Assembly (NCBI RefSeq): GCF_000327385.1
Contig: NW_008708401.1
Location: 437,969 to 501,968, forward strand
Direction: 5' to 3'
DNA length: 64,000 nucleotides
Source: Lottia gigantea
Taxonomy: Eukaryota
Part shown: positions 20,233 to 64,000 of the stretch, piece by piece
Layout of the letters: each line of letters opens with the position of its first letter
Numbering within the stretch: position 1 is the stretch's first letter
Position numbers and translations under genes: made by a program
The notes under the pieces: generated by a model
What the model was told of the DNA's origin: nothing
Seen by the model: only the letters and a program-made list of their open reading frames with translations
The model's database searches: none

Positions 20233-23112
20233 ATGGAAAACGACGAAGAATATAAGACATTTATGAAAAAACTTGAAAACTTTCCAAATTATTTTCAAAT
20301 GAGAGCAGAAACTACGAATTCAAATCATTGGAAAAAATTGGAAAAAAAACTTAATGATGAAAAGGAGGACTTTGAAGAAATGAGTGCAATGGATAGATTT
20401 CGAAACTTAAACTTATTTGGCTGTGTTCAGTATTATCTTGGAGATATGGAATCTGCAGAGTCCTATTTTCAGAAAGTCTTAACAGAATCAGGTTTGACGA
20501 ACATCAATGCTAGTGCGATGATGGCAAACATGTATTACATTCAGGGAAATATAATAAAGTCTAAGGAAACTCTGGAGAAATTAAATGAATTGGCAAAAGA
20601 CCCTTACAAAATAGACATTGCCAAAGGTGAATTGTGTTATGCATGGTCAAGATTGGATCCAAAACATTACAAAAAGGGAATTGATGAATTAAAAAAACTT
20701 GTTTCCAAATATTCTGATAAACCAGAATATCCCATATGGGCTTTTGGTCTTGCTTTATTCTACAGAAGATGCCTTCATCTATCTGTCAAGTCTCTTCATC
20801 CTGATATTGACGTAAACCAATCTTTCAAAAGTGCCAAGGAATTGCTTGAGAACAATATACACAGCGATGATATTGAACCCATTTATAAAGCTCGGTCTTA
20901 TATAGAGCTAGCAGACTTATTAGCTTCAAAAAATATTCACTCTGATATTGAACTTCCTTCTAGTAGTGACATATATAACTACATTGTCAAAGGTGTTGAG
21001 CTGGCCCCAGAATGTGCTTCGGTTTTGATGAAGGCAGGGAAAGTAATGAAACACATTCGCAAATATAAAATATCTGAAGAATATCTTAAAAAGGCTAATG
21101 ATCTACGACCTAACTCTTTTAACTCTCATCAATTAGCATTGATCAAGATAAGTAACATCACACATGAAAAGTATCATAAGGGTGACCATAACAGACATTA
21201 TCATTATAACCCTAATTACCATGCTGGCAGGTTTCAAACACATACTTGTCCTCAAAAAAGTTACCAGGATGTACAGAAAAGATGTGGGGAAGGTTCTCGT
21301 AAGTGGTCGAATGGTAGAAATAAGCCAGCTTGGACAACAACAAACACTAGGTCTACTCCTACATCACACCGACAAGATCACAGGATCCCAGTTGTACAAC
21401 AATTATTCAAATCATGGGAAAGCTCTCCAACAGTCCAGCTTGATCAACAAACTGATGAGAGAGGTTGTTCTACTAATCCAGATCTGGAAGAAGATTGTGC
21501 TATTCAGGAGCGTTGTGCACCTTTTGATTTTGCACAGAGTTGTGGTAGTCCTATTTTAGAAGATAAAGTAGTCCCAGACTTCAAAAAGATGTCTTTAGAT
21601 GACTTAAAAACCACAGAAAAGTTCTATTCTGACAACACACAAACAAAACATTTATCAACAACTAATGACTCTGAATGTATTTTGAAGACTTGCGAACCAA
21701 AAGAAAAAGGAGCACAACCAAATAATGCACTGGGTCCGTCAATTCAACCAAGCAAAACTTTGGATCAACAACAAAAATTTCCCTTCAAATTTTCACCACA
21801 TGCTCCAGAATTTGTACCTTTGCAAGTTGAGAAAAAGATGACACCAATAAAGCCAACTTCAATGAAAACTGTTATGAAGTCGCCAAAATTTAGATCTCTG
21901 GGCTATCACAAATCCAGAAAACTTGAACCTTGTTTGGAGCTCCTGGAGAGATCAGTTTACTACAGTAAGAATACCAATTTTTCTGCTTATTATGACTGGG
22001 GACTACTATTACTACAGATGACTCCTCCAAATTTTGAAAAAGCGTTGAGTAAATTCATCTTCATTATAAGGCATGATAAGTCAATGAATGTACGATACAA
22101 AGCTTACGAGCAGGCTGGAATTTGTTGGATGAAGATGAGTGAAAATGTAGGTGAAAAAGATCAAGAAAATCATTGTAAGAATGCCTGCGAAATGTTTAAA
22201 AGAGCAATTCGATGCTGGGCTGATTGTAAAAGGATGAAATTACATGAATATTTTGATGACACTAAGAAGAATTGTTACTCGCTGTGCTCAATGCGGGAAA
22301 TGATTCTAGGAGATACTTCGAAACGCAACACCCAACAAAGGAAAGATTTGGCTCATATTTACTATCTGATAATGGAATATGGTCCTTCTTTGGAACTTTA
22401 TGAAGAGTTGAAAAGTAACCTTCAGCAACACTCAAATGGACACGACATTGAAGTCGTAAAAGGTATCATTAACAATCATCTAGAAATGAAACAGTTTAAT
22501 GGTGTTCTTGACTTATTATCAATATTCATATCTTCTGAAGAAGGTTTTGTTTGTCATGAATTCAAATATGAAGTTCTCAAGAAGATGATGGATTTTGCTA
22601 TTGTAAACAATGATCATACTTTAGCTGCATCAGTCATAGATTTTGATAAGGAGATCAACTTCTGTTATAATGTAATGATCTTGTACAACAAGGAGGATCC
22701 ATCATCAAAAGAATTAGGGAAATGTTTAGGTGGCTGGTTGGTTGACATTGGGTTGAAAATAACTCATAATATGGATGATGTTATTTTAGGGTGGCCCAAA
22801 TTGGATGGTCAGGGAATCATAATAGGAAGCAGTAGAATGGCCGTCTGTATAATTAATGATAACAATAAATGCGACTACTTACATTTCGCAATGGAAATGA
22901 CCCTAGATGACTTTCTTACAGATGGTAGGAAAATATTTCCATTATGTATCAATAATTCTAAACTAGCTAATCCTTTTAAACATTTGAAATCATTCTGTGT
23001 ATCTAATGAATCTCGATTTGACAAACAGAAGACCGATATACTCAAAGCATTCTGTGATATTTATTTGGCTTCCAGGAATTCACCTACTGAGCCTCAGATT
23101 GAAGCAAATTAA
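20233..23112 (+). CDS. Intronless coding exon of 959 aa for an IFIT-like TPR protein (interferon-induced protein with tetratricopeptide repeats), with a long extra C-terminal extension. The 5'UTR splice acceptor is at 20212-20213.
   Basis: Uninterrupted 2.9-kb ORF in an AT-rich genome. The N-terminal roughly 340 aa aligns by eye with vertebrate IFIT1/5 landmarks: RNLNLFGCVQYYLGDMESAESYFQKV versus WGNYAWVYYHMDQLEEAQKY; DIAKGELCYAWSRL...KKGIDELKKLV...DKPEYPIWAFGLALFYRR versus DCEKGWALLKFGG..YQKAKAAFEKALEVEPDNPEF..GYAITVYRL; RPNSFNSHQLAL versus TPTSSFLHHQMGL; HYHYNPNYHAGRFQTH versus IHYHYGRFQEFH. The similarity call comes from remembered IFIT sequences, not a database search. Confidence 0.6.
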   Translation: MENDEEYKTFMKKLENFPNYFQMRAETTNSNHWKKLEKKLNDEKEDFEEMSAMDRFRNLNLFGCVQYYLGDMESAESYFQKVLTESGLTNINASAMMANMYYIQGNIIKSKETLEKLNELAKDPYKIDIAKGELCYAWSRLDPKHYKKGIDELKKLVSKYSDKPEYPIWAFGLALFYRRCLHLSVKSLHPDIDVNQSFKSAKELLENNIHSDDIEPIYKARSYIELADLLASKNIHSDIELPSSSDIYNYIVKGVELAPECASVLMKAGKVMKHIRKYKISEEYLKKANDLRPNSFNSHQLALIKISNITHEKYHKGDHNRHYHYNPNYHAGRFQTHTCPQKSYQDVQKRCGEGSRKWSNGRNKPAWTTTNTRSTPTSHRQDHRIPVVQQLFKSWESSPTVQLDQQTDERGCSTNPDLEEDCAIQERCAPFDFAQSCGSPILEDKVVPDFKKMSLDDLKTTEKFYSDNTQTKHLSTTNDSECILKTCEPKEKGAQPNNALGPSIQPSKTLDQQQKFPFKFSPHAPEFVPLQVEKKMTPIKPTSMKTVMKSPKFRSLGYHKSRKLEPCLELLERSVYYSKNTNFSAYYDWGLLLLQMTPPNFEKALSKFIFIIRHDKSMNVRYKAYEQAGICWMKMSENVGEKDQENHCKNACEMFKRAIRCWADCKRMKLHEYFDDTKKNCYSLCSMREMILGDTSKRNTQQRKDLAHIYYLIMEYGPSLELYEELKSNLQQHSNGHDIEVVKGIINNHLEMKQFNGVLDLLSIFISSEEGFVCHEFKYEVLKKMMDFAIVNNDHTLAASVIDFDKEINFCYNVMILYNKEDPSSKELGKCLGGWLVDIGLKITHNMDDVILGWPKLDGQGIIIGSSRMAVCIINDNNKCDYLHFAMEMTLDDFLTDGRKIFPLCINNSKLANPFKHLKSFCVSNESRFDKQKTDILKAFCDIYLASRNSPTEPQIEAN

Positions 23113-36389: not shown

Positions 36390-36670
36390 CGAACACCTGA
36401 TGCCACTCACCCAGTGGGGATGGAGAGAGAGGGGGCATTTACCCCACTAGGAAAATGGTTTGTAGCCCCAATTGTATCCCCACTACATTTTATAATATAT
36501 GAAGAATATGATTTTTATACGTTAAGCCTCCAAACATGTGTCGGAATAATCAAAACAATACCAATTTCAAAATTTTATCGAGGGAGTACCCTCTCAGACG
36601 CTCACCCCCCCCCCCCCCCCCTCCCCTTCTATGTCCCAATATGTACCCGCCGGGAGGCTGTTGCTGCCAC
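36390..36670. repeat. SINE-like dispersed repeat, copy 1. It contains a C16 homopolymer at 36606-36621.
   Basis: About 75-80% identical to 39390-39610 in collinear blocks: ggaaaatggtttgtagccccaattgtatcccc / gaaaaatggttcgcaccctcaattgtaccccc; gatttttatacgttaagcctccaaacatgtgtcggaat / tctttttatacgctttggccccaaatatgtgtctgaat; gagggagtaccctctcagacgctca / ggggaaaaccctctcagacgctca. Confidence 0.55.
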
Positions 36671-39389: not shown

Positions 39390-39610
39390 GCGCCACAGTG
39401 AGAACATTTGCCTCCCCCCTCCCCCTTTAGAAAAATGGTTCGCACCCTCAATTGTACCCCCGCTTTCTTTTTAACAATTTTAAAAAAATATCTTTTTATA
39501 CGCTTTGGCCCCAAATATGTGTCTGAATGCACCAAATCTATTCAATTTTTCGAAAATTTTCTCGGGGAAAACCCTCTCAGACGCTCAATGAGAGGTTTGC
39601 GACAAGTCGC
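39390..39610. repeat. SINE-like dispersed repeat, copy 2.
   Basis: See copy 1. ORFs 39320-39535(-), 39408-39680 and 39527-39727 lie inside it and are not taken as genes. Confidence 0.55.
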
Positions 39611-40795
39611 CCAAGTTTCTCTCACTATACTCCATACCGTACCGTACGTCTTTATATGCCCACGCAAAAGCAGAAATTAGAGGCAGAAAATAAAATCACT
39701 CAACTGCGTCATGAAACTTCACTTTAAGACTAGACTAGTATATTCGTGACTGCCGTTTATCTAGATTATCAAGACTATTGATATCAATGGCGGGTAACGG
39801 TAAAACTTGTTCAACCAGTTTTGCGATCACAACAATACACAATAATAGGGCTATTTTTATCCTTCAAGACATGGGCAGGTTCTTTCGAGTTGACTGTAAC
39901 ATACACAAGACGGGAAGGGCACAAAATCTTCTCTATACCGGGCATGAGATCTGTGGGTCTCGAATAAAAACAGGAATATCGGAACGTCAAACATAGAGTC
40001 GGCACCTTTGAAGTTTGCATTAAGGTGTAAAGCCGTTATTTCCAGGTAAGTGAAAGAAATTATGTTTGATTTGAATTGAAAATATTTTATGTTATTAGTA
40101 TGGGAGGGGTTAAGGTGTGATTTGAGTCTTTTATCAATAGATTATGTAAACTCCCTAAATTTATTGGAATTTAGAGTTAAATTTTGAATAAATGTTAATG
40201 TATGAAATAAAAATAGGTTTAAGAATGATTTGCATGTACATGATAAATGGATTTTTATTTAATATTAAAAAAGTCCAAAAGAAGATTAAGTGACAGTGTT
40301 ATAAAGCACAACCCAAAACAGTTCTGGTCAAGGCATAGAAATTTTGTTTAACATTGAGGGGTGGGGGGAGGTGGGATGGTTGGTCTTAAACTCACATTGA
40401 ACCTTATTCTGTGTTTTACCCAAAAAAAAAGGTAACTTTTCATTGAAATGGTACAGAGTCTCAATTTATTATGAAAGTAGGAAAAGGAGGAGGGGAGGAT
40501 GTCCCAAGAGTAGGCCTAAATTTAGCATTGTATATCACAAGTTTGGGATATACTTGACTTTGTGGCACATGATTTCATTTTAGTTACTAAAGTTACTACA
40601 AGTTAGATTTTCAGTATGGATTTAATGGAACTCTGATAGGTGCAAATGGAAGCTCTGAGTGACCCTGATACACATACAAAGACTAGACCACCCTTTAAAA
40701 TGATTTTTCTCCATACAACAAAAATTCAGTATGATTTTAAAAAGTGATCTTGGCAATTTTTAATGGAGAAAATATTCTGCTTTCAGACTGGAAAT

Positions 40796-43700
40796 ATGAG
40801 GCTATTTAAAGAACTAGAGGTAGTGATATTAGTGGTAGGTGTGATCCTGTCTACCAGCCACTGTCAAGATATTTTACAACAGACATGTAACGATCCTAAT
40901 GGCTATGCTACAATTGAACCAGATGCTGATGCTATCATTGGTGGTGTATTGTGTGCTGATGGTGAGTTAAAAGCCATTAAAAGCCATGGTTCACCATTTT
41001 CTGGGTTGATTTGGGTCTTGAATATATATAAATATTTTTCAGAACGAGAATCATAATCCTGTCAAATATACCTCAAACTGGAAATTTTACTTTTTATTTC
41101 TATAAATCTTTCTATGACAGGTCATGTTTCTCTACAATTTGTCGTTTGCTTTTGCTTAAATCCATTTAGTTTTCCAACACCAACCAAATAAATGGTTTTG
41201 CTGTTCAAACATTAACGGCTAAAACTTTCAGAAAAGATAAGGGACCAATTTCACTAAAGTTAGTATAGTTTTCAATAGTTATAATAACTTATCCTAAAAA
41301 TCAGACTGTCCCTTTAAATATTATAATATAATCATCATTACAGACATGCAGGCATATGAAGCTTTACGTCTGGCCATTGAGGTCATCAATAAAGAAAATG
41401 TTAAAATTAATGGAGAATTATTAAATACTAGCTATGTACCTGGTATCAAATTAGGTGAGTTCATTTCTGTCAAATTTAATCTTGATATAAACTTCACTAG
41501 GATAAAATCCACTTTTTACGGCAAATTACTATAAATTCCTCTTCATTTGTGGCCAGTGGTATATTTTTTTTTTGAATCAGTAGTTCCCAACCTATTTCAG
41601 CCCTCACACCCCCGGAGCAATCACATGGAACTTTCACACCCCAAAAATTCAGCATGTGATGATGTGAGGTGCGCTCTCTCTCAACTCAAAATAAATTCTT
41701 CACCTACACCAGTTGGCCACACCCCTGACACCCTAATCCCACACCCCCAGGGGGTGAAAACACTCCAGACTGGGAACCAGGGATCTACATATATGTAAAA
41801 ATTGAATTCCTAAGCATCCTAAAATAGTAAATTATATGTAGGATAGCATATATTGATATGCTTAGACATTTATTTGAGTTTTCAATTTTTAATGAATTCA
41901 TTCATTCATGCTTTTTTGATTCATTCATGTATTCATTCATTGACTAGGTATGAGAGTAAAGAATACTTGTGGTGATAGTGAAGCTGCTATAGAAGGAGCT
42001 ACAACTTTATTTCCACAGTTATCTGCTCCTCAATCAACTTGTAATCAGACTCAGAAAGTGATCCTAGGTGAGTGATCTTTAAAGATGGGTTTCCTTATTT
42101 TTTAGTGTCAAATTAAGCAAACTATTTTATTAATTGGTGTTTCTAATAAATTATCATGTATCTTTTATCAAATCATTATTTTCTTATTGCATATAATTAA
42201 GAGTTTTATTCAATCATAAATGTTTATGTATATACAGTCGGGATAAACATAAAGGGATCCCATCTTTAATTATCTAATAAGAAATACAGTAAGCTGTCCC
42301 TGATTTGACAATATGACTAAATTTGAAATTAATTCTTTTGAAATTACTTGAGGTTTTCCAGTCAAAATCAATAGTCTACTATTTGTAATAGATCACTGAT
42401 GATTGAACTACTAAAATGGAGGACCACTTGTCTTTGTTTAGATTTTGGTGTAATTGGTAAAGTTCCAATGGGAGGACTATAAAGCTGTTTCTATTAGCCC
42501 ACTTTGGTGCAGTAGGATGTAAATCTCTATTTCATTTCATAACATAAATTTCATGGTATACTACTTCTTAGTTTTAATGTACATAACGTTTCAAAAATTT
42601 ACATTGGCATCATTAGCAACATATTCATGTAGATTTTTGAAATGCTGTGTCCAGAAAAGCTAAGGAGTAGTATACCATTAGATTATGTTTGTAAAATTTG
42701 ATGTGATCTCTATTTGATTTCATTTAGAATACATATACTTTGTTTAAAATCAGGTGTGATTGGTACAAGTTCCAGTGGTACAACAATGACTGTGTCAGAT
42801 TACCTGGAGAAGTATAATATTCCCATCATATCATACCAAGCTACAGCACCCATTCTGAGTAATAAGCTCAACTACCCAAACTTTATGAGAACTGTACCTC
42901 CAGATGGCCCACTCATGGATGTAAGTATTTAAAGGAGCAGCAGTCTGATTGTTTGGGTTAATCCAACTATTACGACTACCAACCACTATCTAGTTTGAAA
43001 TGTCTGCAGCTGTTGGAAGCGAAAGTTAACTTGTCATCTACCTATTTAACTTACTTAAGTTAGGTAGAAGTTAGGTGCTCAAATTAATGAAAACTAATGA
43101 TTTTTGGTTTGTGGTGGAAATTTGATGTACTGATTTTAGTTAGATAAAAGCCAAGTTGTTAGAATATATCAAGAAATCTGAATACGTATTAATTTTGAAT
43201 GTTATTGTCTTGACTCTAGGTCATTATCAAAGTATTAAACAGAATTAAATGGGACCATATCATCATTGTTTACGAGGATTCAGTGTTTGGTCGATCATCT
43301 TTCGCAGAAATTTTACCTCGATTATCAGATGCTGGTATTTGTTTGAAATCAGCTATACGTCATGACGAGACAGACACGGCAGCTGGTACATTAGATAGAG
43401 CTTTATTGACCAACACAACTGGTGTGTTATATTTAGGCGGTGTGGACCTGGCAGATCAGCTTCTTCAACAAGGAGAAACTCACCCAGGAGCTGGTAAACT
43501 TCAGTGGATTTTCACCGATAGTATAAGCCTCGATAAAAGTTTCCAAACCAGAAAATATCAACGTGGAATCATCAGTATTTTGCCGAGCTCCAGAAACATT
43601 GTGGAATTTGAAGATCATTGGATGAGAATTGAGGAGAATTCTCCATCTGCAGAAAATCCATGGTTCCAGAAATGGTTTATGGATCAGAATGAATGCCTTT

Positions 43701-46700
43701 TAAACGGTTTCACAGAACCAATGAGCTATCCAGTCTGTGTTATTAAATCAGAAACTGAGAAACGTCAAACATTTGTACAGAATCCTTTCGTGGAACCTGC
43801 TATTCATGCCGTTTTTACTTACGCCAATGCCTTTCGCAAAGCTCATGAAACCTTTTGTGGCCCTAATGCATTCGGAATGTGTGATGCGCTAAAGAATCTT
43901 ATTCCCAGAGATTTTTACCTGAATTACTTGAAGGGTGTGAACTTTAAGTACAATACAGAAGAGCGTATATCTAGTTTGTCCTCCTATATATTGGAACCTT
44001 ATAACACAGCAAAACAAGTCGATTTCGACATTAATGGTGATATCATTAATCCTGCTTACGATATCTGGAATTTCAACAACCTTCTTCAACAAGAACAAGA
44101 CAAAGGTGAAAAATTTAGATTGGTAGGTATTTCATATTTTTCCACTTTAAATTTCAATAAATTTGTCCATGCCTTGTTTAAGTTTAATATTTTGGGTATT
44201 GAAATTTTCTTTATTATTGGGTGTTTCATGTTGGATACTCAACCTTCAGATATTTGATAGTGTAAACTTTTGGATACCCTTGATTAAGTTAACTGTTATC
44301 ATCCATTAATTCTATTGTTTTACAGGTTGGAAGATTCCTGGGAAATATACTATCCATCAATCGAGATCAGGTAGAAATGTATGATGAAAAACGTGAAAAG
44401 CCATTGACTGGTATACCAGAATCTGGATGTACTGTTCAGCCATGTGGACCTTGTGTTGGAGTTCCTCCAGAGACCAAGTACTTCTACCAGCATGGTGATG
44501 TAGTTCTGACTGGTCTGTTCTCCTTACATCAAAAAGGACTCAGTCCTCTAACTTGTGGAGCCTTTGACAAGAATAACATCATCTCCGGGGCTCAATATCT
44601 ACAAGGAATGATCTATGCACTGTATAAAGTAATCCAGAACACTAATATCTTACGAGGAGTACGACTAGGTGGTCTGGCATTCGATGATTGTATGAGCAGT
44701 ATCTTAGGAACCACCACCATATCACAGGTTAGTGAAAAACTCTTGATTTTATACGAAATTATATGCTTGGTCCATATCATAGTGGGTTGCTGCCAAATTT
44801 ATTATTAGGAACCATACAGTCTCAGCAAGTTATAAGTTTTAAAGATTCATATCATTAAGACAATATTTCCAGGATGGCTTGGATACAAAAATAAACCACA
44901 CTTGATGAAGTATCCATCATCTTTAGTCAGGCTCTCCACTTATATCTCAAGAGAGATAACTCTAATTGATATCTTAAGACCAAAATATTACAATAAGTCA
45001 TTATAATACAGTATGCCACTAGTAGATAAACTACATAGATACAAATTTTTCCAGGTCCAACAAGGTGCTCTGACTATAACAGACAGCAGTGGTAATATCC
45101 TGGATCCTAGAAAAATAGATGGTTACATGGCAGCTCATTCCAGCCAATTGACATTCCCCATAGCTGAGTTGATGAACATTTTTAAACGCCCCTTGATTGG
45201 CTACGCTAGTTTAGATGAAGATCTTTTAGATTATCCTTACTATCTGCGTTCCACTCAAGGTTCGGCTTTTGAAAAGCGCGCTATTATTAAGATGCTCAAA
45301 AGACTTGGTTATGAGTATGTCCAATTGGTTTACGAAGATTCAGAATACTTTGTGAAAGGAAGTTATGATTTCCGAAGAATTGCTGCTGAAGAAGGTGTCT
45401 GTGTCATCACTACCATTAAAGCTGGAATGGATGGATCAGAAACAGTTCAGATGCTACGAAAACGAAAAAACATCAAACCAGTCATTTTGAATGTTGGAAT
45501 TATGGGAAATAAGCGTTTTCTGGAGGGTGTCAGCCAAATGAATGCTTCTGGAGAGTTTGCATTATTTGGTCTGCATACTTTTGGAAGATACCAACAAGTG
45601 GTAGAAGGTAATGAAGACGCAGCTGATGGAGTAATCAGTTTAGATATGAGAAGTTCCAATCTTGGGGAGTACCAAAAGTAAGTCTTAACTTTTTAACCCT
45701 ACTGATTAGAACTGCGCCATCTTATCCACTGACTCTCTAAGTAAAGAAAATTCTTATATGAAAGTTTAGTTTTATTTGAATTGTTTATACAGATTACCAT
45801 CCTCTTAGGTATTTTGCTTTATTTTGAATGATATCTGCCTTTCTGCTACTTTGTTTGTCAAATCTGCACCCTTTGGGTAGTTAACACATCTGATAGTGTT
45901 TTTCACCTCATCGCATCCCTCTTGGACAGTCTTGGTATATTGTTTTAAAAGCATTAACTCTTTTCTTATTTCAGTTATCTATCTCGGCTACGTGTAGACA
46001 GTGAGAAAGACAGAAATCCTTGGTTTAGTGAATGGTACCAACATGTCCATCAATGTTTTTTACCAAACTCACAAATCAAAATGTACACGACACCTTGTCC
46101 AGACGTGGCCAACATTGGTATAATTGGAGCTGTAGATTATAAACTAATGTACTATCTGGAAGCTAGTATCAATGCTGTTTATGCCTTCGCCTATGGTTTG
46201 GATGCTGCATTAATTCAGTACTGTGGTGCTCAATACAGTGGAGTTTGTAATAATTTCCTCAGTGCCAAAGATAAAGGGGATGTTTTGGTTCAGAAGATTA
46301 AAGAAATCAGTTTTATTCCTGAGAATTCTCCCTACATTATCCGATTTAATGGTCAAACCATTGATCAACCTGCTGTCTTCTATAATTTTGTCAATGGCCA
46401 GTTTAGAGAGGTATGTTCTTTGTTTTTATTTGAAAGGACACATGTAGGGGAGCATTGTTTTTCTATGTATCTTTAGGTGAGGGGCCCTGAATCTGTATGT
46501 GAGGGGACCAAATTGGGGCCACAGAATTCTCAAAGGGGGACCCACAAGCAATTCTGGAAGGGCTGTAATCTTTTAGAGAGTAGTTATATCATGTATCCAT
46601 GGAGAAATTTCGTACTCTTTTGACCCTTGTATTGAACTCCTTATTAAGTATTAATATTTTTGATGGTACATTTCTTAACTTCCAGATTGGAGAGTATGAA

Positions 46701-49700
46701 GCTATGAACAACCAGCTGAAAGTTACCCAAATTCCAATTTTCTACAACAATACTGCCTCTTCTATGTATAAACCAACATGTCCACAGATGTGTCGTGAAT
46801 GCTTCTACATGTTTCAACATCAAAACTATATGTACATTGATGGAGACTTGTTCATACCTGGCATGTTTGACGTGCATTATTCAAAACGACATGTATCACC
46901 TTTCAGCTGTGGATCTCTTCGCTCAGAAAATGGCTTCCAGTATGTAGAAGCTTTTGCTTTTGCTTTGGATTATGTAAACAATGGTCAAGCTGGTGTAAAG
47001 TTGAATAATAATCTTAAATTGGGAGGTTTGGCTTTCGATGGTTGCTCCAATTCCCTCAGAGCAACTACGTTAGCTAATGCTTTCCAATCTACGGCTATTA
47101 GATTCAAGAACAACAATGGTGGATATATCGACCAGAGGAAGACACTAGCTTGGCTCGGTTACGACAGTCAATCCACCATCAATATGGCTGAATTATTAGG
47201 ATCCATTGGTGTTACAGTTGTGAGTCCAGGAGCTACCTCACCATTATTGAACGACAAAACAAGATTCCATAGTTTCTTCCGAACTATCCCATCTGAAGGT
47301 TACCTTGCTAGAGCAATGGCAGATCTGACAGAGACTCTGGGATTTAAATACGTCATTACAGTCAACTCTCCTGATACAGCCATGAGGGAAGCTAAAGATC
47401 ACTACAGGCAATATCTGAAAGACAATGGCATCTGTGTTCTGGCCTCATACGAGTTTGTCACAGATGGAAGTATGGAAATTATTCTAAATTCAATGAGTGA
47501 ATCAACCACAAGAGCTGTTGCAATATTTGCTGAACCTGACATGTACGTTAAAGAGCTGATGGAGCTGAAACAAAATCGATACCCAAATGTCAACTTCATT
47601 TTTATTTCCAATCGCAAATTTTATGCAAAACAGAAGAACTATGCAGCTGCAGTAGAGAATGCATTAAGTTTTGATATGGATGTTCCAACAGTCCAGGAAT
47701 TTGTGAACTATTTAGGAAGTTTACAGTACACCAGTAACACACGCAATCCATGGTTCAAAGAATTTTATGAAGAGAAATTTGGGTGTCAGCTATTCCCCTT
47801 GTATGCTAGTCCAGCAGTATGTACCATTAAGACCATGTCTATTGTAGACTCTTCCTTCCAGCAAGATTTATACACACTCTCCACTATTAATGCTGTTTAT
47901 GCTCTAACAGAAGGTATGTGCCAATATTTTTCACTTATTCATTGTCTTACTCCATGTAGGGTATTAGGATTTTGGATTTATTAGAAATATGTACATCTAC
48001 ATGTACATATGAAGGTAAACCTTTTTTGTCCTTTATTATTGATGATTGTGGCAGATTATGTAGTTGAGGGTTCAAGGTTATAAAGCACCTGTCGGAAAAA
48101 ACAAATTATCTTTAAAATAAATCTTTTATTGCTATTTTCAGGAGTTCACAGAACATTACAAGAGAAATGTGGAGCATCGTATACCTCTATCTGTGGTAAA
48201 TATCTAACAGATGCTGATACCAACCAGAGGTTGATGGATCACATGGATAAATTGAATTTTACTGATATTGTCGGAGCTTATTTTGAATTTATGGAACGTG
48301 AGGCAAGACAATCCTTTACTGTCAATCAATATAAAAATGGTGATCCGTTTAAGGTAAGAAATTTGTATTTTTTTGGTAAGTGGATGGGCTGAGAGCTTAT
48401 ATCAGGTTAAAACCTGAAAAGCAATTTATTCTTGCTAGTGGGGAGCTTTAAATCCAACACTCTACTTATAGATACATTATTGAGTGAATTTTGATCTGAT
48501 TGTGGTAGGTGTCATAAGCATAACAGCAAATGCTATGCCCTTTAGGAACTCTTGATACCTTCTTTTGACTGGGTTCCCAACTCAGCATCACTTAAAGCAT
48601 CATGTGTAATTTAGAGGGAGATGGAGGAATTCTTCAGAATAGTAAAATTACTTGATAAAGTGAAAAATCAGCTCAATAAAACCACATTGTTATTTTAAAC
48701 CAATTTTGACATGTATTTCAGGTTGCAAGTTTGTTATCTGGAAATCTGACCTACCCTGATTTAAATAATCTTAAAAACAATTATAGAAATGTTCCATCAA
48801 CCTGCGATAATAACTGTGATCTTTGTTCAGATGCCAAAAATAATTTTGGTGATTTTACTCATATTGATGGTGACATATATTTTGTCGGTAAGTAGTCTTG
48901 GATCCACAAGTTTCAGTTATTCCTCATTTTATGAACGTGATTGCATCCCTTCCTGACATGCCCATTTTGACATTAAAGCAGAATATTCAGAGGCATAATC
49001 TGAAATCCCAAACAGAGAAAAGCATAAAAGTAGGACGTAAAAGCCAATTTCATTTTGTTTTATAGGGTTATTTGATGTTCATAAGAAAGGAGCAACACCA
49101 TTTTCCTGCGGTAGTCTTAATGACAAACATGGCTTCCAACTTCTAGAAGCTTTCAACTATGCTGTGGAATATGTCAATGACAAGAAGGGTATATTTAGAG
49201 ATAAACTCAATGGTGTCGATATTGGTGCCATTGGTCTTGATGTTTGCCAGAATCCTACAAGAGCTGCCAATTTGGTAACCAATATCCATAGTAACAGCAT
49301 AAATTTGGTGGACCCATTTGATGGCACTTTGGTTCAACCCTCAAGATTCGATGTCTATATTGGTCCATTTGATACTGATTCATCCATCAGAGTTGCTGAT
49401 GTTTTGGATGGCTTGTCAATTCCACAGATTACCTACGGTGCCACAAGTCTTGAACTCCAGGACAAGAAGAAGTACCGATATTTCCTTCGATCTGTTCCTG
49501 CTGATGATAAACAAGCCAGAGCCATTATCTCCTACCTCAAACGATTTGATAACAACTTTGTTCAGATTATCTCCACCTTTGACAGTGTTGGTTTGAAGGG
49601 TAAAGAAGAGTTTAAGAGATTAGCTCCCTTGAATAAAATCTGCGTAGAGAAAGAAATTACTGTAGGCTATGATGTAAGTCTATTTATGTTACTCTTTTAC

Positions 49701-52700
49701 AATTGTTTATAAATGGATAGCATCTGTAGTATTAGATCTTTCTATAATATTTCAATAACGCTAGATGTGATTGTTAATGAAAATTTATCATCTGATTGGC
49801 TTAATAACATTAAGATGTTTGAATGTACAGTAATTTGATTGGTTTATAATTGGTTAATTGAGATGACTTAAACAGTCAAATAGAATTAAATTGATTTCAT
49901 TGGTTAATAATATTAAGATTTTAATCAATCTCTGTGATTGACCAATGAAATGACTTTAACTGTATTTACTTTTGGATTCAAATTGATCCGATTGGTTAAT
50001 AATTTTAAGATTTAAATTAATCTCCTTGATTGGCCAATATGAGATGACTTTGATAGGATTTACTTTTAAATTCAAATTGATCTGATTGAGGCTGATGAGG
50101 TTTTGTGAATTTAAAACAATGAATCATGATAAGTACTTTTCATTTGCCCTTAGAGGTTGCAAGAGATTAAAATATTATTATTTTTACTCTTTTTCAGGGT
50201 CCTGTAACAGCAGCTGAAGCTAGTAGTGCTCTAGAACAGCTAAAGGCCAATCAATCAGCTAAGGTTGTAGTGCTGTTCGTCGACGATCCAAGAGTTATTC
50301 TTCAAGCTATTGATGTAAACCCTGAAATAAGGAACAATTTCTTCTTCATTGGTACTGATAAATGGGGCATGGATAAAGATATCTTATTTGGATTGGACAA
50401 TTTGATCAGTAGTGATAAAGTTGTAACTTTCGATGTAGAAACAGCTGATGTACCTGGCTTTGATGACTATCTTCAATACAAGACTCCTGATAACTATAAA
50501 CGTAACCCCTGGTTTAAAGAATACTACGAACAGCAATATCAATGTGATATCTCTGAGCCTAATTGTGTACAGAATCGTTTTGGCATTTCAAGAAATGAAA
50601 AGTATATCCAAGATCCTTATGTATTGTATGTGGTCAACGCAGTCTTTGCAGCAGCCCTTGGTGTCCACAAGAGTTTGGTGGAATTGTGTGTCGGTGGTAA
50701 TAATCAGAACCAATTCTTAAATGGTGTCTGTTCCTTATTCAGACAGAGTGGAGAGCGTCGTCAAAGAATCCACCGAGGAATTACTAAAGCTGAGTTTATT
50801 GATGACACATACCAGCCTTTCTACTTCCTGGAAACGGGGGAAAGTGACCGTGGTTACCATATTTATGATCCTAAAAAGGATGATTTGGGTGAATACGTAT
50901 ACGACAATGTAAGTTTCTTCCCTTTTTTATTTTTATTTTTATCTGGCAAAAATGTTAAAAACTGTCCTAAAATGAATCATGAATGTAGATTATGCATTAG
51001 AGTACCTGAATCTGATTGTTCTTCAGTTCCTGAACATGATACAAGATCCTTAATTGGACAAATTGGTTTGGTGACAGAAGATTTTGCACCAAAACATCTA
51101 AACTGGCTGTTGCTATGCCAGTCTGTGAATAATTGTAAGGAAAAGTAGATGGAAATGATATTGGGTTACAAGACAGCCTTGATAACTTTGAGTATGATGA
51201 TATCTCCTAAAAAGTCTTTTTTTTATATTCTTTTCAGGTGGGAAGCTACAATGATACTGACTTTTTGAAAATTGACATCACCTATGACATGAAGTTTCAA
51301 TCCAGATGTAAAGAAGGAGTAGATTGCCCCTGTATTTTCCCCAAATATGAACAATCAAGGTACATGTTAAAAGAGTCAGCATTTAACTTGAATCTGGTGT
51401 ATGTTGCTAACCTTCACCAAGCTGTACCAAATGATCCATTCCAATGTGGTATGATGTCCTCCATGAGCAACTTCCAATCTATGCTTGCTTTCTTCTACGC
51501 TATTGGTCAAGTGAATGCAAACGAGTTCAATAAGTATCCAGCTTCGTTGAAACTTGGAGGATTAGCTGTTGACAGTTGCTCTCAACCAATGAGAATTGGA
51601 GAAGATGTATACAGTTTGTTGAGTGGTGAAGGACTTTGTCATTCCAGTGGACGTGGACAAATTATCTCCCCTTCCTCAGTCGTGTCATTCCATGCCTTAT
51701 CAACAGACACATCAGAACCACTTAGTCGAATTCTAACTCCTTATAAAATCCTGTCCCTCAGTCCTGGAGCTACTTCAGTTAGTTTGAGTGATAAGCGACT
51801 CCATCCTTACTTCCTGCGAACTGTTCCTCCAGATGATATTCAGGTTGTTCTCATGCTACAGGTCATGAAGCAGTTTGGTTGGGATTATGCCTCCATCATA
51901 TACACAAATTCTGGTTATGGAATTTCAGCTAGAGATGCCTTAATCAGACAAGCAGCTTTCGCAAACTTGAAAACCTGCGTCGGAGTTGGTCATGCTTTAG
52001 CTTACTCCACATCCTTGACTGAAGTAGAAGAGATTTTAGTCAGTTTGAGTCAAAAGGTTGGATCACGTGTAGTGATACTCTTTACAGATCCAGCACACTC
52101 ACGTCTGATCCTTCAAGCCACCAAGAATAAGGGACTGACTGGTCGATTTGTTTGGTTGGCCAGCGACTACTGGGCTAACAGTATGGAGATTGTGCAAGGA
52201 TATGAAGAAGAAGCTGTTGGTGCTCTTACAGTCCAGATCCGATCAGAGTTCGTCCAGTCTTTCAATAACTTCATGATGAATCTGAATATGACCAATAGAA
52301 ATGGCATCCCTGATGACTGGTTTGAAGAGTTTTATCAAACTATACACAAGTGTAGAATCCTTAAATCTGAAGTGACGAAACAGTTCCCACGAGTGTGTAC
52401 TGGAAGTGAGAAAATCACTGAAGACATGATCAGTCAAGACCCATTCGTTCTACATACTATTATCTCCGTATACCAGATCGCCGAAGGTTTGAATAGCATT
52501 GCTGCATGTAAATCCTCATCAAGATTAGATTTGTATGCTTGTTTGTCTCTTCAACCAAACAGACGCCATCTCATCTACAACAATGTTTTAGGAGCTCAGT
52601 TAGATGTGTTGTCCAATGAGCTGAAAAATAGAAGCTTCACATTCAAATTCACAGCAGATGGTTATGGTGATATTGGTTACAACATATTAAACTTCCATCG

Positions 52701-55613
52701 TGATGTCACTCAGGATAAATATGTCTACTCAAAGGTAACAAACTTGCTAGAAAATTGTCCAGAGTGCAAAATGAACAATACAACAGTGGGGCGTGCAAAT
52801 CAAATTTTATCTCAAAGGCTTTATGAAATAACTGCATCATGGGTTATTATGTACCAAATGTTACATTGGGGCATTTGTGCAGTGTTTTGATTCCTTTTCA
52901 GTACAATCAGATGTTGAAGTGAATAATTCTTGCTAATCTTCTGTCTGTTGTTAAATGGCAAGCTTCTAAGTAATCAAGATTATAGTGAACTTCTGGACAA
53001 ATATTACAAATCTGTTTCTTGCATCTTAGCTGATTTGTTTGTTCAGGCATATTGATCCCATGATGTTGATCTAGATAGTAGTGGCAGGTGTCGCGCGAAG
53101 AAGATCATGCTTACTCTTTTTCGAAACACCTGATGGTATTTCTCTTTGGAGGAGTCCACTACTGTAATATTTTTACTCTTGATTTTGCCATGCCTTGGAC
53201 AAGATTTTGATTAACGGAATTATCTTTCTTGTACAGCTTTTTATTATATAACCTTGATGACATGAACATTAAAAATGTGACAAGACCTTATCATTAAAAA
53301 AAAACCTGTCAGAGTCTAATGATCAAGCATCTTTTTTTTCAGATTGGAATCTACCAAGAGTCACTTACCATAAACAGACTGGCCTACCGTGGAAAGAGTA
53401 TCCTGACTATTGGAGTTATACCATTGTCAACTTGTCCACCATCAATCAACTGTACATGCTATGCAGCAGGAGCATTGATCAATGAAGGAGGAGCTATCAT
53501 TGGAAGTGGAGTATCTGGTGATAGGATTGTTGCAGATGAAGGTGGAGCGGTATACAGATATCAACATAGTTACACTGATACTGGTTATATTATAGGATCA
53601 GATGGAACTTATCTTGACCCCAAAACAGGTGCTTTATTAATAGTGAAAGGTGTTCGTAAAGGAGCAGATAGGTTCTATGATATTTGGGGAATTATTTTAG
53701 CAGCTTTAGCAGCCATTGGAGCTTTTATTGCTTTATGTATGTTCATCTATTTACTGGTAGTCTACCCTGTACGAAGTGGCACAACAATCCTTGGATTCCT
53801 TCTATTATTTGGCATCATATTGATGTACCTGTTGGTCTTTGTTTTCATTTTCCATGCCTCACCAGAAATTTGCGCTCTACGAAGGTTTGCTTTAGGATTT
53901 GTGTATGCTCTAGTATATGCTGTTTTGTTTGTGAAACTGGTTGATTGCTGGAGATCCAAAAATGCCGGTGACTATTCTGAAGTGAAATACAGTAAAATTG
54001 GACGACCTGTTGGACTATTGTTCTTGGTGATCATGCTTGTGTTGGTCCAGGTGATTATCTGTGCTGAATGGCTGATTTTGGTAGCTCCTGGCTTCACTAC
54101 CATCTATTACAACCAATATATTTGGCCATTGTGTCTTCCTATTGGTTGGTATGATACAGCATTGGTCCTCTCACTGGTTTATGTCATGTTCCTGATTATC
54201 TTATGTGTTATTTTTGGAATTGCCTGTTTCTCAAGCCCAAGAAATCATTATGAATCAAGATGGATTCTTGGTATTGCCATTCTGAGTATTCCAACTTGGG
54301 TAATCTGGTGCCTCGTTGCTGTGTTGGCAGATTATGAATTCCGAGATGCTGCAGTGGCTGTTGGTCTGTTATTGAATGCTACCTATATGTTGTTATGTGG
54401 TTCCCTACGTAAATTGTATCTATTGAACAAATATCAAGCTCTGATTGACGAAGAGGAAAAGGAAATTGAAAAAGAGAAAAAGAGCATGAAAGGTGAGTTA
54501 AAACTCCTCATAAAATGGCACAGGGAAAGTCAAGTTGTGTGTATTGTATTGTGGGTATTGTGTGTTCATATATGAATAACAACTGGCGCTACCCAGTACT
54601 TTTGCATCTGTATATTACATAATTAACCAACGATCTGAACCACAAAACAAAAACCCGAAACCAAAAAACCTTTTGGACAAAACATTGGTAGCAGCTGCTA
54701 ATGAACTTTTCACATGAGGAAGTACATCAACCATAAGTGAGTAAGGTAGGAATTAGGTAGTGCCAAAGTTTTATGGTTGATATCATATTAGATCTTAAGT
54801 GGCATTGTGTGTTGATATAAGATAGGATTTTGGTCTGTGAAATGGTCTTTCTGGAGTTAGATTTTACTTGCTTATGCAAGATTCTAGTTTTCACTGTCAG
54901 TTGATAGAACATTGTGAATACTGCTTTTGTTTTATTTTATTTTATTTTTTTCGCTTTCCTAATGTGCTCGTTTGCATGTGCCAATATTGATTTTGGTTCA
55001 ATTTTGTCAATTACATACAGTATAGTTATCATTTATATATTTTACAGGATCAGTATATTACAGTGAGTATGACAACCGACCACATTTCCATGGAAGTACT
55101 CATGGTAGTGTTCACGGTAGCATGCATGGTAGTGTCCATGGCAGTCGTCATGGAACTCTGCAGGGCCGTAATAGTGGATATGCTTATGTTCGTGGCCATA
55201 GAGGGCAGTTAATCATGGTCCAGACTGGTGGACATGGAGGTCACAGTACCAGACTCCATTCCAATGGTTCCGGTATTCAAAATGGAGGTGGTATGGTCGT
55301 TGCACACAATCAAGCTGAAGAAGAAGTCTTCCATGCAAGTGGACATAGTGCTGGTGGAATGATCATTCAGGAAGATATCCATCCTATGATTAATGATGGT
55401 CATTACAGTGAAGTCAACCATGGGCAAGGTGGAATGGTTATTGTTAGTGGTGGTGGTGAAGAGTCTATGAGGATGCTCAATGCTGATGATGCAGTACCTA
55501 GTACTAGTGGTGGATTGTCAACATCTCAATCAGGACAGTACTCTGAGGTCATCCGTGGTGGAGATGGTGGGGTCAGTGTGTCGGAGGCTTTTGGCAGTAG
55601 AGGAAGTAAGTAG
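40796..55613 (+). CDS. Giant class C (metabotropic-glutamate-like) GPCR of about 3020 aa with FIVE tandem Venus-flytrap (ANF_receptor / PBP type I) modules, a Gly-rich stalk, 7TM and a His/Gly/Ser-rich tail. Sixteen exons: 40796-40961 (signal peptide), 41344-41454, 41948-42067, 42754-42920, 43220-44122 (VFT1); 44326-44727, 45055-45677, 45975-46410 (VFT2); 46686-47913, 48142-48353 (VFT3); 48723-48888, 49066-49673, 50198-50908 (VFT4); 51238-52734 (VFT5); 53343-54492 (linker plus 7TM); 55048-55613 (tail, stop 55611-55613).
   Basis: Each module shows the mGluR-type landmarks in order: the D(I/V)x(I/L)GG(L)F..H start; an N-lobe (GIQ..A..FA...IN....LKLGGLAFD(D/G/S)C or IGAIGLDVCQNP); SPGATS..LSDK..(Y/F)(F)FLR(T/S)VP(P/S)D; NPWFKE(F/Y)Y(E) and a C-lobe. 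The 7TM has seven hydrophobic helices with the class C TM3 signature PEICALRRFALGFVYALVYAVLFVKL. All 15 junctions are GT-AG with matching phases and the summed CDS is 9066 nt, divisible by 3. Modules 2-5 have no start codon or signal peptide of their own. AATAAA near 55989. Confidence 0.7.
53682..54380 (+). other. Seven-transmembrane (7tm_3, class C) region of the multi-VFT receptor.
   Basis: Helices IWGIILAALAAIGAFIALCMFIYLLV, ILGFLLLFGIILMYLLVFVFIF, RRFALGFVYALVYAVLFVKLV, LLFLVIMLVLVQVIICAEWLIL, LVLSLVYVMFLIILCVIFGIACF, WILGIAILSIPTWVIWCLVAVL and AVAVGLLLNATYMLLCGSL. Confidence 0.7.
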
Positions 55614-61196: not shown

Positions 61197-63792
61197 TTAC
61201 TTACGACCGAGTGTTCCTTTAACAGACCGTCCACCATATCCAAAATCTGACTGAGGTCGTTTTCGTTCAGCAGGGTGTTTTCCTGTCAAATCTCCGGTTA
61301 CTCGTAAGACTTTACTACTAGGACCGATAGTGGAATCTGCTTTACGGTACATACCAGGTGGGGAGCTGTACACACTACCAGCAGTGCTGTATTTCAGATG
61401 ATTGTGACCTGAAAGGAATATGATTGTGGAGGGTGTTATTAGTATTCAGATTAACTGGTTGGAGTGGTCACCTAACATCGGGGCATTAAAGATGCTTCGC
61501 ATATCATCATATGACATGGAATCCTCTATTTACTAAAAGATGAATATTTTGATTGTTGCTTGCTTGGAGGGAATACTAAGGCGTTTTTGTCACCGTGCCC
61601 TCCCCATTACGGCATAGATTCTTCAGTCCCTAAAGGAAATATCAAGGATGACATACCTGGATCTCCATTGAGATGAATTGGATCAGAGTATAATCCTGGA
61701 TTATTGACGTATATAACCGAACCAGGTCGGGATTTATAACTTGGTGGGGCCAATATTACTGACTCGTTATAAACTGTATCTCTATCATCCTCAAAATATA
61801 TTCCTTCTACGCCCATATTCACCAACTGTCGGACTTTTGGTAAAAACATAGCAAATAGAACCAAGGTTGCTAAGGAGAAAGAAAATAAAGACTGGTTTTA
61901 ATATTAAGAAATACAAAGTAAAATGGAGCAATGATGTATATTTGTACGGTTTAGGTAAAGCAAACAGTGGTGTTTCTACGAGGTCAGAAAATGGGCTTTG
62001 CAGGTTTTGCCCCCACGCCCCATATCTATATTTCTTATCACTCTGTAGTAGGCCATTTGGGAACAATGGAGGGAAGATCTAATTGCTATTTGGGAAGATT
62101 TGGCTATATTTATGGTAAGCGGTACACACACCAACATACTCCATTGTTAGCAAACAAATTCAAGCTTACTATTATTACTAAATGAAATGAATTGAATGGA
62201 CTTTTACGTCCTACTTTTTCGCATCTGAGGAAATAGGAAACGTCATGCAATCTGCAATGGTCCAACCTTAGTAAGCCACAACATCTCCCAAATAAAAACA
62301 AAACACGCACCTGTTAAAAAGAGACCAAGCGCTATACAACAATCACCAAACTCTTGAGCATAACCATGATCTCTATTTAAACCTCCAACTAAGGTCCAGG
62401 CCAACCAGATGGGAATGGAGAAACCAGCTGATATACCAATGAATATACTTTCTCTATTGTTGGTGATGATACCATGTGATTTCAGGGCCAATATGGTGGT
62501 AATCAGAATTAATACCATGATGTAGATCAGAGACAAGACGTGGTTCTCAAACTCTGTTCTTACGAACCCACCCATATCTTTCCAACCTGAAACAAATTAA
62601 CGTAGGTTATATCATGTCCGCAAGCAGATACACATTACTTTGCTCAAGATGAGATAAGGGTACAACGCCGCAACCCTCAATGTGGAGTTAAGGAATTTCC
62701 CTATTTCTCTTCATATATAGCTGCTATACTACCACACATGAAACAATTTATTTCAGCATAGCAATATCGCTTTGTAAATAACTAAACCATCAGACAATGT
62801 CTTGGTGAATAAGTTAGTTTGTGCAATGAGCGTGAAAATGTCATCGACGAAATAAAACCGTTTTCCAAAATCAAATAGCCCTTAGGCTATTGTTATTCTG
62901 TGTATTTTCAAATATGCTGCATGCAATAGTTTAAGTAACTGAATTGTTAACATGAGCTCAAATGAAAAGATAGTGAAAAATATAAATTACCTGAACCAGC
63001 AGTCCATGTATAATGATTACAGATCCAATATTGTTCTCCTCGGTTATCCATAACCTTAATAGCCTCTGGTGGTACAGTTATTAACCACTGGATAGCGATG
63101 ACTACCTGGACTCCGACAGCAAACATAAACATGAGGAACTGGTAAATACCCTTGAGGTAGTTGGGTGACTCAATATCTCCTGGTAGAAGAGACTCTGATG
63201 CCTTAGATGTCAGAATAACCATAAGCTTCACCAGCAGTACAGAAAACATGATGGCGTAAGACACACCGACTCCGAATCTGGTGATACCACAAGTAGCTTT
63301 GGTTGGGATTGGGATGTAGGCAAATAGTGTCAAATAACTGAGGAAAATACCGAAAAGCAGAAGTTGACCCAACCAGACTGTTCTCCATTTGTGACTGTTG
63401 TGAGTACCTAGTAACTTATACATGACATAAATTTCAAAAACAAAGACGGCAAAAATACCAAGACCGGCCAAAACACCAAGAGCGATAATCCATTTTTGTC
63501 CGATTTCAAATCGGGTCATGTACTCTCCCATTGTTCTGTTCTGGGAAGCGTATGCCCCAGTTATCTCCTGCATAGTTGGATAATACACCATGGCCTGTTT
63601 GCCACCTTCCAATGGGTCTCTAGTAGTACTTTCAGGAGCCGACGAGGCAGGAGTGGTAGATGTTAGTGCCTGAGTAGACGGTGCCTCGTTGCAGACCAAA
63701 CATGGCGTATCTGGGCATCGGCCTCCTGGATAATAATTCCTGACCAAAATTCTTGTTTGAGACAGGCCAGTACTGTTCACATACTTGCCGAC
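61197..63792 (-). CDS. Second class C GPCR, 3' portion (the VFT exons lie beyond the window edge past 64000). Exons, minus strand in transcript order: 62991-63792 (linker RCPDTPCLVC, Ser/Thr-rich stalk, TM1-4), 62321-62586 (TM5-7), 61657-61869 (end of TM7 with the FLPKVRQLV PK motif and the tail), 61197-61408 (terminal tail exon, TAA at 61197-61199). If the 61655-61656 donor is not used, the CDS instead reads through to the TAA at 61607-61609.
   Basis: Minus-strand ORFs 62947-63780, 62243-62575 and 61607-61864 join through GT-AG sites with phase continuity (1,1,1). Class C signatures are present: a Cys at the top of TM3 (CGITRFGVGVSYAIMFSVLLVKL) and PK after TM7. A minus-strand acceptor aatttcag lies at 63793-63800, so the gene continues upstream outside the window. 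Confidence 0.55.
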
Positions 63793-64000
63793 CTGAAATT
63801 GAGAATACCGGACAGTTTAATCAATACACATTCAACTGGCTCTTCAGCTAATCTTGATATCTGGAATAGTCAGAATTATAATTGAACAAGCCCTCTTGGT
63901 GGAGTTTGTCCTGGCGAATGCTATTGTAAATAGAATTTGATTTCAGGGTGAATTGTAGAGTCATTTTATCAATCCTTTTGTCGATCTTTCTTCCCTTGAA

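Follow-up and report, generated by a model that had tools for sequence, protein, structure and literature searches.

How several Venus flytrap (VFT) modules can be carried in series by a single G-protein-coupled receptor (GPCR) of class C, and what joins one module to the next where the usual nine-Cys domain is missing, are the questions raised by a gene on the forward strand of a 64,000-nucleotide stretch of the genome of the limpet Lottia gigantea (contig NW_008708401.1, positions 437,969 to 501,968; this whole stretch is called the window, and positions are counted from its first nucleotide). As class C activation is currently understood, each subunit has a single VFT, whose movement reaches the seven-transmembrane (7TM) domain by way of a rigid nine-Cys domain. 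The gene in the window specifies something different, namely one mGluR-like class C GPCR of about 3000 amino acids (aa) in which five cassettes, each a VFT followed by a connector of three cysteines that is probably a minimal Cys-rich domain (CRD), precede a stalk and a 7TM domain (Table 1).

Architecture of the receptor

The window has a GC content of about 35%, and its open reading frames (ORFs) are split by GT-AG introns in the eukaryotic pattern. The receptor was assembled by joining ORF pieces through in-frame canonical GT-AG junctions, all of them in phase, with the exon at 41948-42067 recovered by tblastn with the Patella orthologue. The product begins with a signal peptide and continues through five VFTs and a 70-aa stalk to the 7TM domain, after which comes a His/Gly-rich tail. 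The five ANF_receptor stretches are recognised by Pfam in the full product (E 3e-176), and 7tm_3 (PF00003) both on its exon (E 1.5e-33) and on the full model (4.9e-32). The orthologue of Patella caerulea is 61% identical over 100% of the query, and a database search yields 19 orthologues of full length (2799-3067 aa), each of which carries ANF_receptor and 7tm_3 annotations. They come from gastropods (Patella caerulea, Haliotis, Littorina, Nucella, Lymnaea, Biomphalaria and others), the bivalves Mytilus, Saccostrea and Mercenaria, the cephalopod Argonauta and the nemertean Lineus (35% identity), and are named 'uncharacterized' or 'mGluR3-like' throughout. A Pfam scan of three proteins confirmed the five-VFT layout, and so did a hidden Markov model (HMM) of the cassette in every protein to which it was applied.

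The linkers as a probable minimal Cys-rich domain

The absence of the nine-Cys domain from every junction, proposed in the initial annotation of this DNA, is borne out. No Pfam match to NCD3G (PF07562) at E<=10 was found in the window protein or in two orthologues, and alignment to mGluR3 falls into two pieces, one over the VFT and one over the 7TM domain, between which the mGluR3 CRD is left unmatched. Canonical single-VFT controls have nine cysteines within 54-58 aa at the linker position, as against three at each junction here. Four of the five linker motifs lie exactly where they had been placed, and CDNNCDLC, put at 48804-48827, begins one nucleotide earlier; the spacing C-x(3-5)-C holds for the first gap, and the second is x(1-2) and not always x2.

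These triplets are very unlikely to be chance clusters, the outcome that a module alignment had been expected to expose if it were so. A regular expression for the motif has exactly five matches in the 3032-aa product, spaced 476-506 aa apart; shuffled ectodomains average 0.13 matches and have three at most, and none of 5000 shuffles reaches five. All 15 motif cysteines are invariant in an alignment of 20 proteins (the window gene product and its 19 orthologues), as are seven cysteines in each VFT. When the 100 modules are aligned together, ten cysteine columns, seven in the VFT and three in the linker, are at least 95% conserved. From the third motif cysteine (Cys3) to the first strand of the following VFT there are about 10-15 aa.

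The best solved relatives, in a sequence search of the PDB, are mGluR3 and mGluR2 (E about 1e-65), and it is by alignment to these that the linker cysteines can be placed. The module cysteine in 'NLKTCVGV' pairs with that in 'RNICIAT' of mGluR3, which we take to be the lobe-2 cysteine that bonds the CRD. The first motif cysteine (Cys1, in 'PLSTC') aligns with the first CRD cysteine of mGluR2 ('PASRC'); searched alone the linker fragment is a weak match (E=1.3, phmmer against the PDB), and the 'PASRC' match falls within a significant full-length alignment (E 5e-60) that reaches query residue 531. Cysteine C561 of CaSR is, on our assumption, its third CRD cysteine. The disulfide between C236 and this residue fixes the orientation of the CRD relative to lobe 2 (LB2) of the CaSR VFT (PMC4977154). 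From these correspondences, together with the covariation described below, we infer that each connector is a minimal CRD, which of the usual nine cysteines has the first three alone and retains the bond between VFT and linker. The likeness to the start of the CRD had been noticed before as a resemblance to its first turn only; the likeness stands, and it extends over the first three cysteines, the VFT-bonding one included.

Connectivity of the linker cysteines

Covariation among a wider set of cassettes bears on which cysteines are joined. The family, and with it the best 150 representatives from an exhaustive HMMER search with the VFT5 exon, was searched with the cassette HMM and a 7TM HMM, giving 300 full-length cassettes, 20 with a nine-Cys domain and 280 without. 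The lobe-2 cysteine is present in 20/20 of the former. Among the latter, 253 of the 280 have the lobe-2 cysteine together with three linker cysteines by regular expression, and five more do so that the expression misses; the family pattern is [PS]-x-S-x-C-x(2-12)-C-x(1-4)-C after the VFT with a matching lobe-2 cysteine, and all five window cassettes fit it. Not one of the 14 cassettes that lack the lobe-2 cysteine keeps three linker cysteines: nine retain Cys1 and the second motif cysteine (Cys2) only, two retain a single cysteine and three have none (Fisher's exact test 1e-16, uncorrected for phylogeny).

The joint loss has occurred in at least three lineages. It is seen in module 3 of a four-VFT family with chelicerate members, in the pair formed by P0098 module 3 and P0180 module 2, and, the clearest case, in P0123 module 2 (QEEGITVST / SSCSKPPCRT), where both cysteines are gone and the 46% identical P0104 module 2 has both (EKEGLCVAT / SSCLNPPCKC). 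Since the lobe-2 cysteine and Cys3 are lost together, the covariation leads us to infer that Cys3 bonds the lobe-2 cysteine of the preceding VFT and that Cys1 bonds Cys2. In CaSR, which has a full CRD, the partners of Cys1 and Cys2 are Cys4 and Cys5; in the window receptor, judged by its sequence, they must pair with each other.

Structure prediction and possible modes of signalling

An AlphaFold2 (AF2) model was made of a slice of the Patella orthologue that runs from the third junction (J3) through VFT4, J4 and VFT5 to J5. Both VFTs are confident, the mean predicted local distance difference test score (pLDDT) is 78, and the predicted template modelling score (pTM) is 0.61, a value that leaves the relative orientation of the modules undefined. 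Each modelled VFT superposes on mGluR VFTs with target-normalised TM-scores of 0.73-0.88 for VFT-only entries (Foldseek against the PDB). Prediction of the inter-module segments, which had been named as a check on the linkers, gives J4 as a coil and not as a folded domain, and a coil of such moderate confidence suggests that the connectors are short stapled loops.

The stalk that follows the last motif had been described as a Gly-rich segment of roughly 75 aa; it is 70 aa long with 14 Gly, and the Gly-rich part is N-terminal. In the AF2 model of exon 53343-54492 this part has a pLDDT below 50 and the last 30 or so residues 57-76. Stalk length differs widely from one species to another and is greatest in the two limpets, whose last tether is long and probably flexible. 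Its membrane-proximal motif, Y..(D/E)G.Y.D..TG...V...RF.D.W, is kept in molluscs and absent in Lineus. The 7TM domain aligns to that of mGluR3 and is modelled with confidence; two of its cysteines, Cys2638 (53871-53873) and Cys2725 (54132-54134), are invariant in 20/20 proteins and presumably form the pair at the top of transmembrane helix 3 and in extracellular loop 2. The tail beyond it (55048-55613) consists in part of repeated HGS/GG motifs (HGSTHGSVHGSMHGSVHGSRHG...), and that of the Patella orthologue is similar.

Two further sets of residues distinguish the modules from each other. VFT5 has an extra invariant cysteine, Cys2096 (51637-51639), found in no other module, which aligns with a cysteine in the matching loop of mGluR3 that we assume to be the inter-subunit disulfide cysteine. 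The amino-acid-binding signature S/T/D/Y/D is well conserved in VFT1 across 20 species and at four of its five positions in VFT4, the best-conserved of the five modules; in VFT5 it is complete in the window gene. When pockets are mapped by alignment in mGluR numbering, with R68 of mGluR3 assumed to be the Arg that binds the distal carboxylate, most modules have a residue other than Arg at the corresponding position.

A working scheme can be drawn from these features. Lobe 2 of each VFT would be covalently stapled to a short connector peptide, which some 10-15 residues further on would turn into the opening strand of the following VFT or, after VFT5, into the stalk. Cys2096 would allow VFT5 to form an mGluR-like covalent dimer, and VFT1, VFT4 and, in this species, VFT5 may retain a pocket of amino-acid type. 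Closure of one module might then be relayed through the stapled connectors, or the modules might act as parallel sensors that feed VFT5.

Several observations weigh against the reading of the product as a five-cassette receptor built and coupled in this way. The first exon junction (40962/41343), alone among the junctions, is slightly uncertain. The J4 coil has a pLDDT of 55-68 in the Patella slice, and the model does not define how one module is oriented to another. The stalk is long, variable and predicted to be disordered, which speaks against rigid coupling to the 7TM domain. The pocket signature is only partial in VFT3 and degenerate in VFT2, and that of VFT5 is variable between species. 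Finally, joint loss of Cys3 and its partner is evident in only about three lineages, and the statistic attached to it ignores phylogeny. These points lower confidence in the reading, which we continue to hold as probable.

With a stalk predicted to be disordered, and with pockets that are degenerate in VFT2 and VFT3, a simpler model is also conceivable: the distal modules may be sensors, or modules for interaction, on tethers. The connectors would then be mere tethers and the distal VFTs independent of each other, with no mechanical relay between them, serving in ligand capture, as co-receptors or in adhesion, and VFT5 alone, or rearrangement of its dimer, would drive the 7TM domain. This is a substantial possibility, to which we give rather less than an even chance. 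The coil linkers of moderate or low AF2 confidence agree with it, as does the restriction of the extra invariant cysteine to VFT5; it accounts less well for a staple between lobe 2 and Cys3 that has persisted at five junctions for several hundred million years, neither cysteine being given up without its partner, for linkers as short as these, and for best-conserved pockets that lie in VFT1 and VFT4 and not in VFT5. The converse and bolder proposal is that the VFT with its three-Cys staple is an undescribed, bilaterian-wide building block for daisy chains, and that the five-module receptor is a mechanically coupled, multi-ligand device which relays closure of distal modules to a dimeric VFT5 and the 7TM domain. 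We consider this proposal, taken as a whole, unlikely. If it were true, relay through stapled connectors would be an activation principle unseen in any studied class C receptor.

Origin and distribution of the cassettes

All five cassettes of the window gene share an intron, of phase 0 and in one alignment column throughout, that directly precedes the (V/I)G strand from which the linker follows. The modules of a single protein are 20-26% identical to each other and orthologous modules 37-50%, and since orthologous modules are the closer, the duplications are older than the split between molluscs and nemerteans. The comparison thus supports an origin of the cassettes by tandem duplication before that divergence, and the five-VFT proteins of the brachiopod Lingula suggest an earlier origin still. 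Repeated duplication of a VFT-plus-linker unit, already proposed from the window alone, is upheld by the cysteine columns and the shared intron; calling the linker a truncated CRD, as was done then, presumes an evolutionary direction.

Receptors with five VFTs and a 7TM domain occur in molluscs, where there are two paralogue groups, in the nemerteans Lineus and Tubulanus, and in Lingula. Four VFTs are found in Saccoglossus, the crinoid Anneissia and the chelicerates Centruroides and Dinothrombium; three, by annotation, in Branchiostoma, Acanthaster and Lytechinus, the stricter HMM recognising two full-length modules in both echinoderm models; and two in Branchiostoma. One VFT with a short linker is seen, for example, in the Sinanodonta protein P0101 and in P0129, an ORF from a run assembly; P0101 may be a truncated model, as it clusters at 90% identity with a Potamilus protein of 2794 aa. 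Database names for these multi-VFT relatives are 'uncharacterized' or 'mGluR-like' only. The second mollusc five-VFT group (P0064, P0065, P0068, P0219 and P0222, from Argopecten, Sinanodonta, Bulinus, Octopus and Potamilus) appears, in a neighbour-joining (NJ) tree of 7TM domains, to be distinct from the group of the window gene.

The cassette is also found on another kind of membrane anchor. Two cassettes followed by one hydrophobic helix and a tail of 100-340 aa make up P0114, P0128 (Lingula), P0161 (Patella caerulea), P0179 (Nucella) and P0143 (Potamilus), none of which matches the 7TM HMM, their tails lying outside the Pfam scan. By their sequences these single-pass proteins look like an undescribed receptor family.

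Whether the three-Cys connector is derived at all is a fair question, as it might instead be ancestral, a proto-CRD of which the nine-Cys domain of mGluR, CaSR and T1R is a later elaboration, with nothing truncated. We hold this to be possible, if somewhat short of an even prospect. In the 7TM NJ tree the nine-Cys receptors form one clade nested among several three-Cys clades, and the three-Cys cassette occurs in protostomes and deuterostomes and on both kinds of membrane anchor. That tree, however, is midpoint-rooted, with neither support values nor outgroups such as GABAB or non-bilaterian receptors, and cannot polarise three-Cys against nine-Cys. A 2025 survey, moreover, reports that canonical class C architectures are conserved across metazoans, sponges and ctenophores included (PMC12716839), which makes the CRD at least as old.

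Relation to known receptors

Among solved proteins the closest counterparts are the group II receptors mGluR2 and mGluR3, which give the best sequence matches for VFT5 and the 7TM domain and the best fold matches for each VFT, and which share the VFT disulfide framework, the lobe-2 cysteine, the cysteine in the loop before the 'GVIG' strand and the position of the first CRD cysteine. They differ in having one VFT where there are five here and a nine-Cys NCD3G where there are three cysteines; the long, partly disordered stalk and the unconserved R68 position set the window receptor apart as well. CaSR has a full CRD, unlike the window receptor, and its C236-C561 bond between LB2 and CRD is the same link as that proposed here between the lobe-2 cysteine and Cys3.

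To our knowledge GABA-B receptors have no Cys staple and a single VFT per subunit. They resemble the window receptor in being of class C architecture without a nine-Cys domain, the VFT being joined to the 7TM domain by a stalk (PMC12716839), and differ from it in that the three-Cys linker is present here. No GABA-B chain is among the best 60 PDB matches listed, which are headed by mGluRs and then CaSR.

Tandem VFTs feeding a membrane signalling domain are otherwise known from the BvgS and EvgS sensor kinases, which carry tandem periplasmic VFTs and a transmembrane signalling domain on one chain (PMC4352136). These are functional analogues only: they are bacterial, of periplasmic-binding-protein type, with two VFTs, helical linkers to a histidine kinase and no disulfide staples, and homology with the window receptor does not go beyond fold class. 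In metazoans the 2025 survey lists ANF+NCD3G, ANF alone and Cache+EGF as the only architectures of the glutamate family (PMC12716839). The literature searched, in full text with incomplete coverage, holds BvgS/EvgS only and no eukaryotic multi-VFT class C receptor or three-Cys connector; the five-VFT three-Cys architecture appears to have been overlooked, many predicted proteins notwithstanding.

The family is of interest as a natural minimal-CRD experiment, one that indicates which part of the CRD is indispensable, namely the lobe-2 staple, and it offers a defined system for asking whether that staple alone transmits a signal. It also prompts a new question, namely by what means, and to what end, several flytraps would be read in series by one GPCR; multi-ligand chemosensation is a conceivable example.

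Chance, metal binding and the gene model

Two other explanations bear on the cysteine triplets and on the gene itself. Three closely spaced cysteines could in principle chelate a metal, or be a chance cluster, in place of a disulfide staple, and AF2 gives the linker no confident fold. Either is very improbable: the triplet is extracellular and invariant in 20 species, far from the 0.13 motifs expected by chance; the conserved cysteines come to an even count of seven plus three per cassette, with one extra in VFT5; and Cys3 disappears together with the lobe-2 cysteine.

That the protein is an artefact of the gene model, in which tandem VFT genes or a VFT array and a separate receptor gene have been misread as one, is scarcely credible, for even though fused models do occur, apparently among them the 'CASR partial' proteins of Polypterus, in which 7-10 partial VFT matches are seen, there is neither a 7TM domain nor an in-frame stop between the modules here, every junction is canonical and in phase, the order of the five modules is common to all 19 orthologues, and a run assembly of another species contains the whole as a single uninterrupted ORF. 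This last is an 8840-nucleotide Logan contig (SRR8325617) whose 2847-aa ORF (about 8.5 kb) has the five-VFT and 7TM architecture; having no introns where the genomic copy has 15, it is taken for the assembly of an mRNA. The contig tells against fusion in the gene model and equally against missed CRD exons, on which the initial annotation had made its case depend, as it leaves no room for a full CRD.

The Polypterus senegalus 'CASR protein, partial' entries (P0070, P0071, P0074 and P0079) were not accepted as true multi-VFT receptors. Their VFT matches are partial and overlapping, and they were therefore rejected as fused tandem models. They resemble fusions of tandem V2R/CaSR-like genes and may mislead searches for multi-VFT receptors.

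The neighbouring receptor gene and other features of the window

Table 1. Receptor gene, its cassettes and the convergent neighbour, in window coordinates
Feature	Position	Strand	Description
Whole receptor gene	40763-55613	+	16 exons, 3032 aa; Pfam 5x ANF_receptor + 7tm_3
Receptor exons 1-6	40763-40961, 41344-41454, 41948-42067, 42754-42920, 43220-44122, 44326-44727	+	
Receptor exons 7-11	45055-45677, 45975-46410, 46686-47913, 48142-48353, 48722-48887	+	
Receptor exons 12-16	49066-49673, 50198-50908, 51238-52734, 53343-54492, 55048-55613	+	
Cassette 1 (VFT1 + J1)	40868-44454	+	motif CTVQPCGPC 44428-44454; lobe-2 Cys240 43340-43342
Cassette 2 (VFT2 + J2)	44455-46802	+	motif CPQMCREC 46779-46802; lobe-2 Cys750 45400-45402
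Cassette 3 (VFT3 + J3)	46803-48826	+	motif CDNNCDLC 48803-48826; lobe-2 Cys1237 47433-47435
Cassette 4 (VFT4 + J4)	48827-51333	+	motif CKEGVDCPC 51307-51333; lobe-2 Cys1715 49641-49643
Cassette 5 (VFT5 + J5)	51334-53459	+	motif CPPSINCTC 53433-53459; lobe-2 Cys2209 51976-51978
Phase-0 introns	44123-44325, 46411-46685, 48354-48721, 50909-51237, 52735-53342	+	just before the (V/I)G strand leading into the linker
Stalk	53460-53669	+	70 aa, 14 Gly; N-terminal part Gly-rich
7TM domain (7tm_3)	53673-54449	+	Pfam; aligns to mGluR3 7TM; AF2 confident
Neighbour, second class C GPCR gene, exon	62950-63816	-	7tm_3; VGKY... VFT-tail-like start; motif RCPDTPCLVC 63720-63691
Neighbour, further 7TM exon	about 62596-62246	-	

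A second class C GPCR gene lies convergent to the first, and it does carry a motif of the same kind, RCPDTPCLVC, as had been pointed out before. After the motif its exon continues with a Ser/Thr/Pro-rich stalk and the region from TM1 to TM4 and the second extracellular loop. The pattern C-x5-C-x2-C is kept in those relatives of the neighbour that reach the motif region, usually followed by G-[ED]; the fragments of this family, taken from assemblies of runs, metagenomes and genomes, were called exon by exon and are uninformative on the N-terminus. In Pinctada imbricata (GCA_033119305.1; locus L003, 8287-10000) a VFT with a lobe-2 cysteine ('AHNICIVHS') lies directly upstream of the motif and the 7TM exon. 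This VFT and linker can be read only with frameshifts, which points to assembly errors or a pseudogene, and the deposited annotation divides the locus between two gene models; at the homologous locus L001 there is no VFT within 10 kb upstream. Given the VFT upstream of the motif in Pinctada, the neighbour is very probably, to judge from sequence comparison, a receptor of the type with a VFT and a three-Cys linker, its VFT lying past the end of the window. The rest of the 64-kb window yielded no other class C gene.

The remaining features belong to other genes or to intergenic DNA. At 3999-8010 on the forward strand lie several exons that encode von Willebrand factor A domains, with Pfam VWA matches as strong as E 6e-41; they belong to a separate upstream multi-VWA gene. 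At 20233-23112 (+) there is an uninterrupted ORF of 959 aa with weak TPR matches only; it stands out in a window whose other genes are split by introns, and may represent an intronless gene or a retro-copy. An intergenic direct repeat of about 165 bp (36442-36604 and 39422-39587; 76% identity) lies upstream of the receptor gene and is probably a dispersed repeat.

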